Shown here: positions 1-8,137 of the stretch, piece after piece
How positions within the stretch are numbered: position 1 is the first letter of the stretch
Layout of the letters: each line of letters begins with the position of its first letter
Virus record (IMG/VR): IMGVR_UViG_2778261702_000016
DNA length: 8,137 nt
Origin: a virus
Lineage: Duplodnaviria; Heunggongvirae; Uroviricota; Caudoviricetes
Direction: 5' to 3' (one strand)
The notes under the pieces: model-generated
Told to the model about the DNA's origin: nothing
The model's input: the letters and a program-made list of their open reading frames with translations, nothing else
Databases searched by the model: none
Translations under genes and position numbers: made by a program

Positions 1-259
1 CCACTGTACATCTGGCCACCCTGATACCTTCGCGTAACAACTGGCGCCAGACTTTACGCACACCGTACACCTGATGATTTTCATCGTATACGCGCTGTAT
101 CTCTCTCTTCAGCCAGTCATCGCGCTGCGCACGGGCACTGCGTTTATCCGGATGATGTCGCTGTTGCTGACAGTGGTAATACGTTGACGGGGCAATATGC
201 AGTTCACTGCATACCGGTCCGACCCCGTACTGCTCACGCAGCTTATCCAGCAGCGGCAT
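1..259 (-). CDS. IS3-family transposase OrfB (catalytic part), 5' 86 codons only, runs off window edge; normally made as an OrfAB fusion by -1 frameshifting
   Basis: Minus-strand frame from ATG at 259..257 translates [36 protein letters not shown]... with no stop to position 2; A-rich slippery run (plus strand TTTTTT 262..267) overlaps the orfA stop. Confidence 0.85.
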   Translation of the reverse strand, partial: MPLLDKLREQYGVGPVCSELHIAPSTYYHCQQQRHHPDKRSARAQRDDWLKREIQRVYDENHQVYGVRKVWRQLLREGIRVARCTV

Positions 260-585
260 TATTTTTTCCAGAGGCGGTCGAACTCCGCCTTCGCAAAATA
301 AGCGGAAGCCTGGCGAAGGATATCGTTACTGCGGCGCAGTTCACGATTTTCACGTTCCAGCTCTTTCAGACGCTGACGTTCAGCGGTGGTGAGTCCACCA
401 TCACCGCCCCCGGTATCCCGCTCATGCTGACGAACCCACACACGCAGAGTCTCTGGTGTACAGCCAATCTTTGGGGCAATGGAACAAATTGCCGCCCATT
501 GTGAGTCATATTCGCCCTGACTTTCCAGAACCATACGGACTGCCCGTTGACGGACCTCGGGGGAAAAACGTGTATTTTTAGTCAT
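259..585 (-). CDS. IS3-family transposase OrfA (helix-turn-helix DNA-binding part), IS629-like
   Basis: 108-aa [29 protein letters not shown]...[30 protein letters not shown] with leucine-zipper-like C-terminus typical of IS3 OrfA; start 55 bp inside the IS left end. Confidence 0.9.
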
Positions 586-639
586 CCTGTTTACCTCTTT
601 CTCAGGGAGTTTAGTCTCCAGGATTCCCGGGGCGGTTCA

Positions 640-1172
640 ATCTGCTGGCCGGAACTAATGAATTTATTGGTGAAGGTGACGCATACATTCCGCCTCATAC
701 AGGTCTGCCAGCAAACAGTACCGATATTGCACCGCCAGATATTCCGGCTGGCTTCGTGGCTGTTTTCAACAGTAATGAGGCATCGTGGCATCTCGTTGAA
801 GATCATCGGGGTAAAACGGTTTATGACGTGGCTTCCGGCGACGCGTTATTTATTTCTGAACTCGGTCCGTTACCGGAAAATGTTACCTGGTTGTCGCCGG
901 ATGGAGAGTGTCAGAAGTGGAACGGCACATCCTGGGCGAAAGATGCAGAAGCAGAAAAACTGTTTCGGGTACGGGAGGCAGAAGAAACAAAAAACAGCCT
1001 GATGCAGGTAGCCAGTGAGCATATTGCGCCACTTCAGGATGCCGTAGATTTGGATATTGCGACGGAGGAAGAGGCATCGTTACTGGCTGCATGGAAGACA
1101 TATCGGGTATTGTTGAATCGTGTTGATACAACAGTAGCAGCGGATGTTGAGTGGCCAGTCGCCCCACAATAA
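640..1172 (+). pseudogene. tfa: Tail fiber assembly protein (Tfa / P2 gpG family), 5'-truncated by the IS insertion at 639/640
   Basis: Frame open from 642 ([43 protein letters not shown]...[30 protein letters not shown], stop 1170..1172) with no ATG; the track start at 756 is a GTG. About 15 N-terminal codons are missing, replaced by the IS end. Confidence 0.85.
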
Positions 1173-1215: not shown

Positions 1216-1788
1216 CTATTTATACAATACAACACCACTCTTTTTAGTTATATATGTGCAGTTTGATGGTATATCTTTATTTATAAAAGACATTGCACCT
1301 ATTTTTACATTATCCCCAATTTTACGTGATAATCCAATGATGCAACAATTAGCTCCGATATCAACGTTACTACCAATTTTTACTCTTGAACTAGGCATAT
1401 CACCATCTATCTGTCCAATGGTAGTATTCTGTCGTAATACCAGATTTTCACCCGCATCAACAGCAAAATGAACAACAATTCCAGCATGATGGGGAATTGT
1501 CAACCCTTTTCCAATATTTGCGCCCAATCCTATTTCACAACCAAACTTGTTAATTATTTTACTGTTTAACTTTTTGGCTGCTTTCTTATGTAATTTATTA
1601 CCATTAATATACATTTCGTTAGCCAACCGCCACCAGAAAAGGAAATTCCGGTTACGCTGCTTTTTCTCTCTTAAAAGCCTCCAGATATCCATACGTTTCC
1701 GCCGAATTACTTCATGTTTCCAGAAGTTTTTTAAATTAGTAGAGTTTCCAAATAAAACAAAGTGAATTGCCATTAAGTAAGATAGCAC
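1216..1788 (-). CDS. Hexapeptide-repeat (left-handed beta-helix) acetyltransferase, CysE/WcaB serine-acetyltransferase-like; probable polysaccharide O-acetyltransferase carried as phage cargo
   Basis: Motifs GCEIGLGANIGKGLTIPHHAGIVVHFAVDAGENLVLRQNTTIGQ...VKIGSNVDIGANCCIIG...IGDNVKIGAMSFINKDIPSN match the SAT/WcaB hexapeptide core. Start set at GTG 1788 (AAGGAG 6 nt upstream); longest ORF would start at ATG 1821. Stop TAG 1216..1218. Visibly AT-rich versus neighbours. Confidence 0.8.
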   Translation of the reverse strand: MLSYLMAIHFVLFGNSTNLKNFWKHEVIRRKRMDIWRLLREKKQRNRNFLFWWRLANEMYINGNKLHKKAAKKLNSKIINKFGCEIGLGANIGKGLTIPHHAGIVVHFAVDAGENLVLRQNTTIGQIDGDMPSSRVKIGSNVDIGANCCIIGLSRKIGDNVKIGAMSFINKDIPSNCTYITKKSGVVLYK

Positions 1789-1944: not shown

Positions 1945-2439
1945 TCAGAGCAGCCCCTTAACTGAGCTGGCCGCGCTATTAAGGGATGATGTCACCTTAT
2001 CTTTGAAGCCGGACAGCATATCGCTGAACGATGAGGATTGCAGGCGCTCCCGCAAATCCTCATCACAGCGTTCAAGAGTCAGTGAAAATTCTATCTTTTT
2101 CGCCTTACCGTAGCGATCAAACTCGGAGCGGGTCGTATTCGTTCCGGTCAGGACATACATGCCGTAAATCTGCCCGACGCCATCAATCAAAGGCCAAGGA
2201 CGTCCTGTATATGCCTGCGTGGTCAACAACGACAGCGACACTTCGCCACCAGTAATCTCAGGATAAAGAACACCAGAAAGAACGATGCGATCATCACCTG
2301 CACCGATATACTGCCAGCTTGCTGAACGGTTAACGCGTTCATTTTTCACATGTCGCCAGCTTTTGTTTTGCTGTAACTGCTGATGCGGCAACGTGCGCAG
2401 CTCAAAAACAAACATGCCGTAGATCATCATCATGGCCAT
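1945..2439 (-). CDS. Phage tail protein U (P2 gpU family)
   Basis: MAMMMIYGMFVFELRTLPHQQLQ...WQYIGAGDDRIVLSGVLYPEITGG...PWPLIDGVGQIYGMYVL...KIEFSLTLERCDE matches the gpU family pattern. AGGAG is spaced better for the second ATG (2433) than the first (2439). Confidence 0.85.
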   Translation of the reverse strand: MAMMMIYGMFVFELRTLPHQQLQQNKSWRHVKNERVNRSASWQYIGAGDDRIVLSGVLYPEITGGEVSLSLLTTQAYTGRPWPLIDGVGQIYGMYVLTGTNTTRSEFDRYGKAKKIEFSLTLERCDEDLRERLQSSSFSDMLSGFKDKVTSSLNSAASSVKGLL

Positions 2440-2445
2440 GACTCC

Positions 2446-3282
2446 TCAATCTTTATCGTAAAAACTGCCACGCCTGGCACGGGCGCGCCGTTCCATTTCT
2501 GCCCTGACCATTTCGCCGACCAGTTTCGCCAGTTCGCGGGGATTCTGCGTAACAACGTTATGCAGATGAACATGAATTTCACCGCCAAATCCGGAGGCAA
2601 CAGGCTCCCGGTTACGGGAAGTTGCAGGAACTGATGCCACTGGCGATCGTATGGCCTCCACCACCGGGCGGGAGCTGGCCGCAACAACAGGGACCAGCGC
2701 CGGAGGCAGCGGAGCCGGGACCACGGGTGTGATATTAATTGCGGGGGCAGGCTTACTGACCTGCGCAATCTTCCGCTCCTGCCACTCCCCACGAACAGCA
2801 AGTGCGCGGGGCAGGTTCTTAAAGACAATATCGCCGGGGCCAATGCGTTTTTTTGTCTCATCAACCAGCTTACCTGTGTTATCAGCAATTTTGCTGAGTC
2901 TGCGTAGCGTGCCGGTATTGCTGTCTGTGAGAGGTTTGTTGTCTTTGGGTTTATCATCTCCGGTGCCATTGCTATTTCCCGCAGACTTCGGCGGATTGAT
3001 TTTCGCAATGTCTCCCTGAAACAGAGCAACCTTGTCCTGAAGAATGGCCGCACGTTGTGCGTCTTCGATTTTCTTGCGCGCCCTTTCCGCTTCATCCGGA
3101 AGCACACCGAGTTTTTCAAGTATCCACGCCAGCGTATCCAGCAACATTTTTGCAGGCGTCAGAACAAGCTGTAACGCACCACCAAGAACGTTACCGAATA
3201 CCTCGCCAGCACTGGTACATTTATCCAGCGTTTCCTTGCTGGACTCCATCGGTGACAGCAGCGATTTAAACCAGTTAAACAC
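2446..3282 (-). CDS. Tail tape measure protein, C-terminal segment (second half of a frame-disrupted gene)
   Basis: Frame open from 3306 to stop at 2446; track start is a GTG at 3282. Sequence FNWFKSLLSPMESSKETL...REPVASGFGGEIHVHLHNVV... continues the upstream tape-measure ORF in a different frame; stop lies 6 nt before the gpU ribosome-binding site. Confidence 0.7.
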   Translation of the reverse strand: MFNWFKSLLSPMESSKETLDKCTSAGEVFGNVLGGALQLVLTPAKMLLDTLAWILEKLGVLPDEAERARKKIEDAQRAAILQDKVALFQGDIAKINPPKSAGNSNGTGDDKPKDNKPLTDSNTGTLRRLSKIADNTGKLVDETKKRIGPGDIVFKNLPRALAVRGEWQERKIAQVSKPAPAINITPVVPAPLPPALVPVVAASSRPVVEAIRSPVASVPATSRNREPVASGFGGEIHVHLHNVVTQNPRELAKLVGEMVRAEMERRARARRGSFYDKD

Positions 3283-5258
3283 CTGGCTGAACCGCTTCCG
3301 ATTACGTCAAAAACAGGGCCAAACCGTTCAAAGGTGTCGCGCAACGGGGTCAGCCTTTCCATAATCCCGCTGAACACCCCGGCAAAGAAAGCCCTGATAG
3401 GATCCCAGTATTTCCAGATAAGAACGGCAGCTCCGGCAAGCGCAGCCACGATAAGACCAACCGGACTGAACAACGCCCCGATAACGCCTCCCAGTAAAGA
3501 AACGGAACCCGTCACCATTCCCCATAGCGCAGGTAACACCCTGACGACATTCATTGACCGGGTAAGAATGTCAAAACCAAGACGCAGGGTGGCCAGCTTC
3601 CCGTAAAGCACCCCAATAACCAGCGACAACGAGCCAATCGTTGCAGTCATTGCCAGCAACGCACCGCCTGCTATCAGTAGCTGGCGCGTCAGTACCGGAT
3701 GGGCCTGCGCCAGCGAGGTGATTTTTTCAAGCACCCGCGTGAGCCACTGCGTGACAGAACGCAGCGGACCGTCAACCAGATCACTGATGCGAATACGAAG
3801 ACCTTCCCATGCGCTGTCGAGATTTTTCAGGTCCCCATCAAGATTATCAGCCATTACTTTTGCGACGCGATCGGCCTCTCCCCTTGCCCCCTGCAATTCT
3901 CTGGTCAGTTTTTGCAGCTCTCCTGAACCAGCCGCCGCAACAAGCGTCTGCAAACCAACGAACGCCTCTTCTCCGGCGATGTCCTTGAAGAAGGAGACCT
4001 GGTCCACCTGTCCGTATTTTTGTGTCGCCTTATAGAGATCAAGCAGCACATCCTCCATCGGGCGCATTTTGCCTCTGGCGTCAGCAACTGACACCCCCAG
4101 CTCTTTCAGTGCATCAGCCGCAGCTTTTGGCGGTGATGCAAGGCGGGACAGACTTGCGCGCATGGCCGTGCCAGCATCGCTTCCGCGAAGACCATTATTG
4201 GCAAGCATCCCGGCCATGGCCGCCGCTTCTTCAAGACTGATACCAAGTTTTGCGGCAACCGGACCGGTATACTTCATGGTTTCGCCCAGCGCGCGTAAAT
4301 CAGTATTGGTCCGGGTAAATGCTGCTGTCAGCGTATCGCCCACCCGGTCCATTTGATCGGCTGTCAGGTTGAACTGTGTGAGGATATTGGAGCCTATATC
4401 AGCCGTCTCGCCGAGTTCGACGCCACCTGCCAGCGCCATATTAAGAACACCGGGCAATGCGGCCTGAATGGCCTGCGGAGTAAAACCAGCCATTGCCAGA
4501 AAGCTCTGCCCACTGGCGGCATCACTCGCAGTAAACTGTGTTTCAGCAAGTTTTAACGCCTGCTCACGCAGCGCCTTAAACTGCGGGCTGTTTTTGTCGA
4601 TTCGCGTCAGTGCCTGAACGCGGGACATCTCTTTGCCGAACCCGATCGCAGGCTGCAAAAAACGCCCGGCAGCATAGCCGCCCGCCGCTGCCGCACCAAT
4701 TGCCAGCGCACCACCTGTTTTCAGTTTTCCCGCGGTTTCCTGCGCGTGCGAATACCGCTCACGCGCCTGCGTTACACGCGCAAGCGCCTGCCGTTCGCGT
4801 TCAAGCTGGTTGTTGTATTGTTCGGTGCGTCTGATGGCCTGCTGAATGGTGTTATCGCTGCCTGTCAGGGAAATGCCGTGGCGTTTCAGCTCTCCGCCAA
4901 GTTCCCTCATTTTCTGAATTTCCCGTGTGCGCGATTCATTCAGGCGTTCAAGCCGGGTGCTTAACTGCTGCATCAGCTTTTGTTGTTTTTCGCTGAGCAC
5001 TGTACCCGTGCGTTGTAACTGATTAAGGGCGTTAAGCTGGCGTCGTGCTTTCACGATGCCAGCATCCGCTTTACTGACAGCGTCGCGGGCGCGCTCAAAT
5101 GATCGCGCCTGACGCTCGAGATTTTTGATCGCCCCCTGCGTTCGCTGGATGGAGTCACCAAACTGCCCCATCAGGCGGCGTGCGTTTTCGGCAGGTCGGG
5201 TCAGCCTGTCAACGGCGCTGAAAGCGACCCGGATATCAAGAGTCTTCATTGTCTGCAT
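3159..5258 (-). CDS. Tail tape measure protein (P2 gpT-like), N-terminal segment; reading frame lost near 3290
   Basis: Long alpha-helical Q/R/L/A-rich ORF with Gly/Ala-rich transmembrane-like stretches typical of tape measure proteins, placed between chaperone and gpU. Track start 5285 is GTG; first ATGs at 5258 and 5249 overlap the E' stop. The last ~44 codons before the stop at 3159 look out-of-frame (SARCLTGLNRCCHRWSPARKRW...). Confidence 0.8.
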   Translation of the reverse strand: MQTMKTLDIRVAFSAVDRLTRPAENARRLMGQFGDSIQRTQGAIKNLERQARSFERARDAVSKADAGIVKARRQLNALNQLQRTGTVLSEKQQKLMQQLSTRLERLNESRTREIQKMRELGGELKRHGISLTGSDNTIQQAIRRTEQYNNQLERERQALARVTQARERYSHAQETAGKLKTGGALAIGAAAAGGYAAGRFLQPAIGFGKEMSRVQALTRIDKNSPQFKALREQALKLAETQFTASDAASGQSFLAMAGFTPQAIQAALPGVLNMALAGGVELGETADIGSNILTQFNLTADQMDRVGDTLTAAFTRTNTDLRALGETMKYTGPVAAKLGISLEEAAAMAGMLANNGLRGSDAGTAMRASLSRLASPPKAAADALKELGVSVADARGKMRPMEDVLLDLYKATQKYGQVDQVSFFKDIAGEEAFVGLQTLVAAAGSGELQKLTRELQGARGEADRVAKVMADNLDGDLKNLDSAWEGLRIRISDLVDGPLRSVTQWLTRVLEKITSLAQAHPVLTRQLLIAGGALLAMTATIGSLSLVIGVLYGKLATLRLGFDILTRSMNVVRVLPALWGMVTGSVSLLGGVIGALFSPVGLIVAALAGAAVLIWKYWDPIRAFFAGVFSGIMERLTPLRDTFERFGPVFDVIGSGSARCLTGLNRCCHRWSPARKRWINVPVLARYSVTFLVVRYSLF

Positions 5259-5765
5259 TCCCGCTGCGAAGTGCCGCCCGCTCACGCCAGCTAACCACTT
5301 CGCCGGGCGTCATCATGAAGATTTCGGCGGGCGACCAGTTAAAAATAACGGCAATATCTGCCACAAAGTCTTCTATGTGCTCAAAGCACACAACCGTGAT
5401 CAGGCTTCCGTCGCCTGTTCGTTCTTCCCGCCAGAGTCCGCACCGCTCAAAAAATTTACGGCAACCACACATAACTGAATAAAGTCACGGGATGCCATTT
5501 TTTTGATCGTCACTTCATCCAGTCGCGGTGATGTCACGCGTGACAGCAGCGTAAACATGGATTCCGCTTTCAGATTCAGCACATCAGACAGCGACAAATC
5601 TCGCAGAGATCCAGCCTGCTCAATAGCCCCGGTGATCTCCACATACGTGATTTTTTCGCCGCCTCGCTCAATTGGTTGGGTAAGTTTTACACCACGCTCA
5701 CTGGTTTCTTTCACAGTGTCAGTAACTACCGTGTTTTCGGTATCGATGTTTTTCGTCTCTTTCAT
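5236..5765 (-). CDS. Tail assembly chaperone E+E' (product of programmed -1 ribosomal frameshift)
   Basis: The -1 frame downstream of the slippery site reads FFERCGLWREERTGDGSLITVVCFEHIEDFVADIAVIFNWSPAEIFMMTPGEVVSWRERAALRSGNADNEDS to a stop at 5236..5238, giving the P2 E/E' arrangement immediately upstream of the tape measure gene. Confidence 0.65.
5400..5765 (-). CDS. Phage tail assembly chaperone (P2 gpE family)
   Basis: 121-aa ORF MKETKNIDTENTVVTDTVKETSERGVKLTQPIERGGEKITYVEITGA...; AAAGGAG ribosome-binding site (plus 5774..5780) 8 nt upstream of ATG 5765; small acidic protein between tube and tape measure genes. Confidence 0.85.
   Translation of the reverse strand: MKETKNIDTENTVVTDTVKETSERGVKLTQPIERGGEKITYVEITGAIEQAGSLRDLSLSDVLNLKAESMFTLLSRVTSPRLDEVTIKKMASRDFIQLCVVAVNFLSGADSGGKNEQATEA
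5448..5454 (-). promoter_or_regulatory. Slippery heptamer T_TTT_TTG for programmed -1 frameshifting E to E+E'
   Basis: Minus strand GTA AAT TTT TTG AGC in the E frame (VNFLS); the heptanucleotide TTTTTTG is the plus-strand CAAAAAA at 5448..5454. Confidence 0.6.
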
Positions 5766-5819: not shown

Positions 5820-6332
5820 TCAGCCAAGCCCAAGCGCGGAACGGATGCGATCGGGCACAATGTCCTTGCCGTCCTTCCGGTAAATGAAGTTCAGCAGGTC
5901 AATCTCCCACAACGGGCGATCGTTAACACTCAGCTTGTAGTAGGTGTTTTTAATGGCGTAAGTGTGTGATGTGGCTTCGCCCTGTTTGGCTTCCCCCATA
6001 TCAATTTCCGTCACACGTCCGCGCATTTCGACTTCATACAGGTCGCTTTCATCATCGGTGTAGTATTCCCCCGCAAAACGCAGTAGCGTGCCGTCAATCG
6101 TGCCGCCATACTTCAGGAACAGCTCACGAACTGCGCCCCCCATGACAAAGCTCGCATCAAGCGCGGAGTCGTCCAGGCCGAGGTCAATACTTACCGCACC
6201 CATCATGCCACCACCCCGGTAGCTGTCGGTTTTGCGCGTCAGTTTAGGCAGGGTGACGGACGTCACCTTACCCACTTCGTTTTCACCATCCACAAACAGC
6301 GTAAAAAAGCGAAGATGTTTTGGTACAGCCAT
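5820..6332 (-). CDS. Phage major tail tube protein (P2 gpFII family)
   Basis: 170-aa ORF MAVPKHLRFFTLFVDGENEVGKVTSVTLPKLTRKTDSYRGGGMMGAVSIDLGLD...YYKLSVNDRPLWEIDLLN matches the FII tail tube pattern; start ATG overlaps the sheath stop. Confidence 0.9.
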   Translation of the reverse strand: MAVPKHLRFFTLFVDGENEVGKVTSVTLPKLTRKTDSYRGGGMMGAVSIDLGLDDSALDASFVMGGAVRELFLKYGGTIDGTLLRFAGEYYTDDESDLYEVEMRGRVTEIDMGEAKQGEATSHTYAIKNTYYKLSVNDRPLWEIDLLNFIYRKDGKDIVPDRIRSALGLG

Positions 6333-7516
6333 CAGGCACCTCCCAGCACCGCAAATGCGGGACCAAAGAATTCATCAGTAAACGACTGGTAAAGCTCCAT
6401 GTCTTCCAGCGGAGGAACGGGCGTATATTTGTAGCGAATACGCACACGCCCCTGACGTAAATTCGTGGTGCTGTTATCCTCGATGTCATACCAGCACTCC
6501 GCGCCAATCAGTTTCCCGGCAGTAACCAGTGAATCCAGTTTTGCCCTGATGGCACTGATAACATCCTTCACGTTCGCAGGTGTCAGTGGACTGTCGATGG
6601 TTTCAAACTGCGCTTCCGCAATTGAATCAGCCAGCACCTGTGCGGTTCGGGTATACACCTCAAAGATGTAGGCGTTCGTTTCCGGTGTGCGGTTGCCCCA
6701 GAAGCGGAACCCGTTGCGACGAATAATGGTCGTGATTTCTTTGTTGTTGAGGCTGTTGGCATCACTGTCTTCGGCCTGCAACGACCAGAACACATGCCTC
6801 GACATCCCAAGCACATTTTTAACCGGAACGTTGGACAGCGATTTGTGCCAGCCCTGCTCATGGTCAATGTACGCACGAAGGCCGCACGCATAAGCAGGCG
6901 CGGGGAACGTTTCGTTTTTGCCACTTTTCAGGTTGTAGGCGATGAAGTCAGGCCATAAGAGCATCACCTCACGTTCGTTGAATTTCTGGCGGTAGGTAAT
7001 CGCCTCAGCCATCGTGTTACAACCATGACATGTGGCATACACAAACGCGCGCAGTTTACCCGCAATCACGCACAGGGATTTTGTTACCGCCTCCGTGTCC
7101 AGCTCCGGCGCGGCCAGAATACGCGGACGGTATCCGATGCTTTCATCCTGCTCTGCAACAAGCAGCGCATACATCCCCGTATAGCTGCCGTCAGATTCAG
7201 AACCACCGATAACCAGTTGATCCTGCGTCTTACCGCCTTCTTCTTTGTGTTCAGCCACGCGAACGACGATCACTTTTGTGCTCACCTGGTCTGCGATAGC
7301 CTTAAGCGCACGATAAAGCGTCCCCGTAGTCCCGCATTTTCCCAGCACGTCATTGACGCGGGTCAGCAGTGTGGGCTTGTTCAGCGGGAACAGCTCCGCG
7401 TCCGCATCATCTGCCGTTGCCACGATACCGATAACACTGGAATCAACATCATTAATCGCTGTTACCAGGTCGGTACTTTCCGTAACACGGGCACCATGAA
7501 AACGAGTTTCACTCAT
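6332..7516 (-). CDS. Phage tail sheath protein (P2 gpFI family)
   Basis: 394-aa ORF MSETRFHGARVTESTDLVTAINDVDSSVIGIVATADDADAELFPLNKPTLLT...FRFWGNRTPETNAYIFEVYTRTAQVL... typical of contractile sheath proteins; AAGGGG 9 nt upstream of ATG 7516. Confidence 0.9.
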   Translation of the reverse strand: MSETRFHGARVTESTDLVTAINDVDSSVIGIVATADDADAELFPLNKPTLLTRVNDVLGKCGTTGTLYRALKAIADQVSTKVIVVRVAEHKEEGGKTQDQLVIGGSESDGSYTGMYALLVAEQDESIGYRPRILAAPELDTEAVTKSLCVIAGKLRAFVYATCHGCNTMAEAITYRQKFNEREVMLLWPDFIAYNLKSGKNETFPAPAYACGLRAYIDHEQGWHKSLSNVPVKNVLGMSRHVFWSLQAEDSDANSLNNKEITTIIRRNGFRFWGNRTPETNAYIFEVYTRTAQVLADSIAEAQFETIDSPLTPANVKDVISAIRAKLDSLVTAGKLIGAECWYDIEDNSTTNLRQGRVRIRYKYTPVPPLEDMELYQSFTDEFFGPAFAVLGGA

Positions 7517-7673: not shown

Positions 7674-7940
7674 ATGACCGACACCACCATGCAATTGCTC
7701 AGTCAGGGCACAGACCACGTGAAAGTGCCGGATTTTGATATTCTCGCGGAGGGTAAAACGCTGTCAGGCGTGGCAGAGCGCCTGATGAGCCTGTCACTGA
7801 CCGACAACCGGGGATTTGAGGCGGACCAGCTCACCATCACGCTGGATGATGCAGATGGTCAGTTGCAGCTACCGCCACGGGGCGCGCGCCTGACGGTTCT
7901 CATTGGCTGGAAAGGAGAACCGCTGACAGAAAAAGGCACT
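7674..7940 (+). pseudogene. Phage late control gene D (gpD family tail protein), 3'-truncated after codon 89
   Basis: ATG 7674 preceded by GGGAGGG; MTDTTMQLLSQGTDHVKVPDFDILAEGKTLSGVAERLMSLSLTDNRGFEADQLTITLDDADGQLQLPPRGARLTVLIGWKGEPLTEKGT matches the gpD N-terminus (SLTDNRGFEAD.LTITLDD motif), then homology stops at 7941 and the frame terminates within 20 codons. Confidence 0.8.
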
Positions 7941-8010
7941 TGTAGATTCAATCTGTCAATGCAACACCCCTTTCAATTATCTCTTTCGGTGTTTTGAACT
8001 TCAGTGTCTT
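7941..8010 (+). mobile_element. Terminal fragment of an IS30-family element (inverted-repeat end), truncated by the IS3-family insertion at 8011
   Basis: 7941..7966 TGTAGATTCAATCTGTCAATGCAACA matches 23 of 26 positions of the IS30 terminal inverted repeat as I recall it (TGTAGATTCAATTGGTCAACGCAACA); starts exactly where gpD homology ends. Confidence 0.5.
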
Positions 8011-8137
8011 TGAACCGCCCCGGAAATCCTGGAGACTAAACTCCCTGAGAAAGAGGTAAACAGGATGACTAAAAATACTCGTTTTTCCCCCGAAGTCCGT
8101 CAGCGGGCGATTCGTATGGTTCTGGAAAGTCAGGATG
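8011..8137 (+). mobile_element. Second IS3-family insertion sequence (IS629-group, distinct variant), left end; runs off window
   Basis: Starts TGAACCGCCCCGGAAATCCTGGAGACTAAACTCCCTGAGAAAGAGGTAAACAGG; 118 of 127 aligned bases match the reverse complement of 513..639. Confidence 0.9.
8065..8137 (+). CDS. IS3-family transposase OrfA, first 24 codons (partial at window edge)
   Basis: ATG at 8065 after GAGG; translates [24 protein letters not shown], paralogous to the OrfA at 585..259 (V to I at residue 16). Confidence 0.85.
   Translation, partial: MTKNTRFSPEVRQRAIRMVLESQD

Follow-up and report, generated by a model that had tools for sequence, protein, structure and literature searches.

Sp13, also known as CP-933T, is a defective P2-like prophage of Escherichia coli O157:H7. 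According to Asadulghani et al. (2009), Sp13 is devoid of portal, head, host-specificity, packaging and lysis functions, and its minor tail was scored as defective (PMC2669165). The prophage is still inducible, and it excises and replicates after mitomycin C treatment, indicating that the locus is transcriptionally alive (PMC2669165).

The stretch of DNA analysed here, hereafter the window, is 8,137 nt long, and an identity search assigned it to Sp13/CP-933T. The 2901-nt region around its tape-measure gene matched 1377 complete E. coli records, with 100% identity in O157:H7 strains Sakai, EDL933, TW14359, EC4115 and many more. The Sakai copy sits in a region annotated as 'prophage Sp13, P2-like phage' and is designated pseudogene ECs_2640, and the EDL933 copy is EDL933_RS14220 (CP-933T), labelled by PGAP as 'phage tail tape measure protein, frameshifted'. 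Every base of the 2804-nt gene is the same in the window and in these two copies, frameshift included, and we found no difference inside the gene. Outside this gene, the window is likewise identical base for base to Sakai and EDL933 as far as position 8011, whereas its right end (8012..8137) consists of IS629/IS1203 sequence where both reference strains carry IS30, indicating that a different O157 strain was the source of the window. The tape-measure frame break was, then, known before: the gene is annotated as a pseudogene, and the defective prophage that contains it has been well described.

The tail module of the window

The window contains a P2-type tail module in the order sheath, tube, E/E', T and U on one strand, the minus strand, with gene D on the opposite strand. 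The tail sheath (7516..6332; PF04984) and tail tube (6332..5820; PF04985) genes precede a gpE-type tail assembly chaperone gene (5400..5765), which is the upstream neighbour of the tape-measure gene. A canonical E/E' -1 shift site, T_TTT_TTG (5454..5448), gives access to the E' segment (5236..5391), which belongs to the GpE family (PF06528). The gpT-type tape-measure pseudogene of the TP901 family occupies 2446..5249 (2804 nt), as defined by its identity to Sakai and EDL933 and by PF10145 and TIGR01760, and is followed by a gpU-type tail protein gene (1945..2433; PF06995). T therefore lies between E/E' and U, the position of this gene family in a P2-type module.

This layout differs from that of P2. 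The sheath-to-U block seemed oddly inverted with respect to D and the fibre genes, an anomaly that we dismissed because the same layout is standard in Gemsvirus and Xuanwuvirus phages, being the normal arrangement in 500465-2 (Gemsvirus) and in P88 and P884B11 (Xuanwuvirus).

The two reading frames and the ancestral allele

The original prediction, made from the sequence alone, placed a single-base frame change in the tape-measure gene; the identity of the gene, the frame change and its position were all borne out, and the coordinates proved correct throughout. On the minus strand, an ORF spanning 5285..3159 begins with GTG at 5285, although the annotated start is the ATG at 5249. From this ATG, the upstream frame (3159..5249) encodes 653 native residues followed by 43 aberrant ones, for a product of 696 residues ending at a premature stop (3161..3159). 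As had been proposed, this frame is coherent down to ...FGPVFDVIGSG and then gives implausible residues, reading SARCLTGLNRCC...VVRYSLF; at the transition, the bases are ...GAC GTA ATC GGA AGC GGT TCA GCC AGG TGT..., that is, ...DVIGSG and then SARC.... The adjacent, -1 frame (2446..3306, minus strand) is bounded on its 5' side by a TGA (3307..3309) and holds the C-terminal 280 tape-measure residues, ending at the stop 2448..2446. Its translation, open after the TGA, starts as RNRKRFSQVFNWFKSLLSPMESSKETL... and its bases, CGT AAT CGG AAG CGG TTC AGC CAG GTG TTT AAC TGG TTT AAA..., correspond to RNRKRFSQVFNWFK..., in agreement with the predicted opening right after the TGA and continuation to 2446. 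Within this frame, a second minus-strand ORF runs from GTG 3282 to the same stop.

Both halves derive from one tape-measure protein. The upstream piece agreed in 652/653 positions with residues 1-654 of the uninterrupted tape-measure protein (935 aa) of O157 strain 493/89, and the downstream piece in 280/280 positions with residues 656-935 of the same protein. Additionally, a single PHROG profile crosses the junction, with positions 1-111 of phrog_17114 (388 positions) matching the upstream piece and positions 111-388 the downstream piece. These matches supplied the continuous alignment across the junction that had been suggested as a check, and established the second fragment as tape-measure sequence rather than a stretch without homology. 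The core tape-measure domain of the TP901 family scored above the curated cut-offs, both with TIGR01760 on the upstream fragment (283.7 bits; cut-off 28.8) and with PF10145 on the repaired protein (185.6 bits; cut-off 33.2). However, the continuous ORF of 935 codons present in close relatives is broken in the window at 3291 and then meets the premature stop at 3161..3159, so the gene is a pseudogene of the TP901 family and not a functional member. Intact relatives carry one continuous gene here, and not the two separate genes that would have spoken against a frame change: a single 2808-nt gene is found in phages 500465-2 and P88 and in many E. coli prophages.

The most informative intact alleles are those of the O157 strains 493/89 (WP_000853407.1) and LSU61 (O157:H7; WP_000853406.1), with 2808 nt and 935 aa. 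Both strains harbour the same prophage as the window, with identical protein accessions for the tube, gpE, gpU and acetyltransferase, but they read GGG ATC at the junction and retain a GCT codon that is missing from the window. Only two events separate the gene of 493/89 from that of the window, namely a 3-bp in-frame deletion between 4546 and 4547 (minus strand), converting the ancestral ...KLGSETQF... into ...KLAETQF..., and a GGGATC>GGTTC change. The intact junction is likewise GGA AGC GGG ATC AGC CAG (G S G I S Q) in phage 500465-2 and in strains MDR_56 and 2015C-3107, whereas that of the window reads GGAAGCGGTTCAGCCAG. From the comparison with intact alleles, the lesion (3290..3293, minus strand) is thus GGTT in place of the ancestral GGGAT, with GA replaced by T at 3291 and a net loss of 1 nt, which throws the rest of the gene 3' of it into the -1 frame.

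Part of the original prediction has to be modified in this light. It proposed to restore one T in the minus-strand GGTTCAGCC (3293..3285), and the addition of one base there does regain the frame and fuse both halves into a 2805-nt ORF of 934 codons. Nevertheless, the added T, and the Phe it would encode, are not historical, because the ancestor had GGG ATC, with Ile. For the same reason we rejected the contraction of a T run as the lesion: the closest intact alleles read GGGATC, and the event was a two-for-one replacement in which an Ile was lost, not a Phe. An exact 81-mer search for a possible intermediate, GGGTTC, gave no match in 5426 genomes. We consider that a genuine inactivating frameshift, GGGATC>GGTTC at 3291, produced by ordinary prophage decay, explains the locus with a probability of about 0.95. 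The value of the result is mainly one of housekeeping, in that the frame break originally noticed is confirmed as a true mutation, fixed and pseudogenising, and the inferred ancestral sequence has been corrected.

Comparison of O157 strains also ordered the events. The 3-bp deletion is present in PV15-279 and F3113 and absent from 493/89 and LSU61. PV15-279 and F3113 keep GGGATC yet share the deletion, indicating that the deletion is older than the frameshift; in both, the N-terminal part of the gene has been lost in association with IS1203, and the gene of F3113 contains an internal stop as well. An intact gene thus underwent the 3-bp deletion and then either the GA>T frameshift, in the lineage of the window, or truncation by IS1203. 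These comparisons show that the GA>T frameshift had a single origin, after the 3-bp deletion, in a copy that is still intact in earlier-branching O157 strains, and that vertical inheritance has since carried it through the common O157:H7 lineage. This clean order of decay events in Sp13 within O157 is modestly useful and could serve as a lineage marker.

Alternative explanations for the frame break

The original prediction left open whether the break was a real inactivating mutation or a homopolymer sequencing error, and our results identify it as the former. One-base indels are a frequent assembly artefact, and the lesion does touch a short GG/TT context, so that a miscall hiding an intact gene deserved attention. 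However, the runs concerned measure no more than 2-3 nt, and the change replaces GA by T and does not alter the length of a run. Moreover, the exact lesion-bearing 80-mer (3329..3250) is present in 264 complete E. coli records from many laboratories, among them Sakai and two independent EDL933-lineage assemblies. An artefact would be missing or variable among independent assemblies of the lineage, whereas these 264 records all agree in the 80-mer. In a rank-spread sample of 60 matches to the 80-mer, 12/12 identical matches span 80 nt and 48/48 non-identical ones span 81 nt, all 48 with the extra base. A lesion shared by 264 complete assemblies, outside any long homopolymer, is a real, fixed mutation, and we consider a sequencing or assembly error extremely improbable. 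The two pieces could also form a functional gene pair, in which an N-terminal protein of 696 aa and a C-terminal one of 278 aa, started at GTG 3282, are made separately and cooperate or have acquired new roles. An ORF with a GTG start does exist (3282..2446), and two tape-measure CDSs are annotated in some phage records, such as that of phage 520873. Against this, the GTG is not preceded by a convincing, well-spaced Shine-Dalgarno sequence. Nor can reinitiation be coupled to termination, the upstream stop being located 120 nt past the GTG. Besides, the split of the window is restricted to one clonal lineage whose closest relatives are intact. That of phage 520873 occurs elsewhere, at about codon 382, and the sheath gene in its record contains an IS100, which identifies this split as another decay event and led us to reject a conserved two-gene architecture. 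We therefore regard a working gene pair as highly unlikely.

Translational rescue of the frameshifted mRNA was the remaining alternative to an inactivating mutation. A T_TTA_AAT heptamer (3270..3264, minus strand), 24 nt downstream of the lesion, fits X_XXY_YYZ in the upstream frame and falls within the frame overlap, between the TGA of the -1 frame and the stop of the 0 frame; an SD-like AGGTG is located 9 nt upstream of it. A -1 slippage at this site would yield a full-length tape measure in which the eight residues ISQVFNWF are replaced by SARCLTGL, leaving the gene partly functional, and translational 'correction' of indels is documented, as reviewed in PMC5009743. Nevertheless, the sampled intact relatives contain the same heptamer, out of phase and simply specifying W-F-K (TGG TTT AAA T), indicating that it was not selected as a slippery signal; it is a chance by-product of these conserved codons. 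The 96 nt downstream of it have a folding energy of -29.8 kcal/mol versus a shuffle mean of -27.5 (z = -0.66), which is not significant, and thus we found no stimulatory RNA structure in that interval. According to a systematic study in E. coli, -1 motifs are efficient only with cognate re-pairing in the A site, as in A_AAG, the tetramers listed as shift-prone are limited to A_AA.G, U_UU.C, U_UU.U, C_CC.U, C_CC.C and A_AA.A, and little shifting takes place at motifs that lack stimulators (PMC4066793). This list does not include A_AA.U, so T_TTA_AAT does not qualify as a motif of proven efficiency, a judgement based on the general rule and the tetramer ranking of that study and not on a value for U_UUA_AAU itself (PMC4066793). 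The two-frame arrangement is not conserved either, since all sampled relatives outside the 264-record clone have the extra base, and the relatives with annotation that we examined contain a single tape-measure ORF. Finally, even if the protein were rescued, no tail could be built with it, because baseplate, fibre and head genes are missing from the prophage and its D gene is not intact. We thus rejected a programmed or compensatory -1 shift at T_TTA_AAT, given the type of motif, its insignificant downstream fold and the architecture of the relatives, and consider a partly functional, rescued gene very improbable. There is an equally slim chance that rare slippage at this heptamer, possibly aided by AGGTG, produces a little full-length protein with the 8-residue substitution; if so, translation would be 'correcting' an indel adventitiously in a still-inducible prophage.

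Predicted consequences of the frameshift and comparison with other phages

Under the favoured reading, an inactivating frameshift, translation from the normal start would give the 696-residue product, lacking the C-terminal 281 of 935 residues. A tape-measure protein has to extend through the lumen of the tail tube and interact with the baseplate hub as well as with tail-completion proteins. For this reason, the truncated product with its nonsense end should fail in tail assembly, being able neither to support nor to template it. Nothing in this analysis contradicts the reading of an inactivating frameshift, with the truncated polypeptide as the only predicted product.

The lesion is accompanied by others in the same prophage. 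The D gene is interrupted by IS30, leaving an N-terminal fragment at 7674..7997 of the window, and IS629 cuts the tail fibre assembly gene at about position 640. On the far side of this IS629, the place of the fibre, baseplate, head and lysis genes is taken by plasmid-type genes for partition and replication. The frameshift has probably persisted because the other virion genes of the prophage were already gone, or were disappearing, so that there would have been no selection against it. Independent lesions of the tape-measure gene occur elsewhere: strain 1613 carries an IS1203 insertion in it, and phage 520873, which is prophage-derived, has its own split. Together with the losses in PV15-279 and F3113, these lesions show the usual pattern of neutral decay.

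The programmed shifts of the tail chaperone genes of P2 and lambda (E/E+E' and G/GT, respectively) are likewise -1 frame changes in the tail module. The T_TTT_TTG of the window E/E' is the same heptamer as in the P2 E/E+E' site, and the shift there reaches the PF06528 segment, which is annotated by PGAP in the relatives examined. Unlike the E/E' shift, the tape-measure break has neither an efficient motif nor a stimulator, is absent from intact relatives and is specific to one lineage. The corresponding genes of the Peduoviridae phages 500465-2 and P88/P884B11 show 89-96% nucleotide identity over the whole gene and the same gene order, and, whereas the gene of the window is broken, theirs are single ORFs of 935 codons.

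Insertion sequences at both ends of the tail-gene remnant

At the left end, an IS629/IS1203 copy (1..639, minus strand) interrupts the tail fibre assembly gene (642..1172, plus strand) at its 5' end, leaving 531 nt of it in the window, as compared with 579 nt in strain LSU61, which carries the same prophage. Beyond the IS, the Sakai strain contains plasmid-type partition and replication genes at the expected place of the fibre, baseplate and head genes.

At the right end, only an N-terminal fragment of the late-control D gene (gpD, VgrG/Pvc8-like; 7674..7997, plus strand) persists, truncated by IS30; PGAP labels it an incomplete D-family pseudogene, and the fragment gave no Pfam match at E <= 0.001. 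An IS30 end of 71 nt (7941..8011) is followed directly by the left end of IS629/IS1203 (8012..8137, plus strand; TGAACCGCCCCGG..., orfA start MTKNTRF...); two inverted IS629 copies flank the tail-gene remnant. Sakai and EDL933 diverge from the window from 8012 onwards, with IS30 going on in those strains and IS629/IS1203 in the window, which therefore comes from another O157 strain. A single-piece match across the IS30/IS629 junction at 8012 was absent among the top hits.

Genes beside the tape-measure gene

A short distance upstream of the tape-measure gene, the tail module keeps its genuine programmed −1 frameshift intact, with the T_TTT_TTG shift site (5448..5454, minus strand) close to the end of gpE (5765..5400, minus strand). 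Entered through this site, the E' frame (5391..5236, minus strand; GpE-family, PF06528) runs on into the beginning of the tape-measure gene.

A hexapeptide-repeat or serine O-acetyltransferase-like gene (1216..1788, minus strand) separates gpU from the tail fibre assembly gene and looks like a moron; it is AT-rich, with 33–37% GC compared with ~54% in adjoining genes. An identical protein (WP_000954203.1) occurs in LSU61 and 493/89, both of which have an intact tape-measure gene.

Lesions in related copies of the prophage

The tape-measure gene also contains a 3-bp in-frame deletion (between 4546..4547, minus strand), changing KLGSETQF to KLAETQF, that is common to strains PV15-279 and F3113 but absent in 493/89, LSU61 and all phages examined. 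This deletion is older than the tape-measure frameshift.

The lesions of this gene in other strains are independent. In PV15-279 and F3113 (loci L008 and L009 4573..6885), an IS1203-associated truncation affects its N-terminal part, and a C>T change at window-equivalent 2781 gives F3113 an additional internal stop. In strain 1613 the gene carries an IS1203 insertion, and in the prophage-derived phage 520873 (locus L010 1552..4358) it is split near codon 382 (approximately). Finally, gpU of strain 2015C-3107 (locus L004 3898..4375) is annotated as 'frameshifted', its adjoining tape-measure gene being intact; this gpU frameshift is a further case of piecemeal decay within this prophage family.
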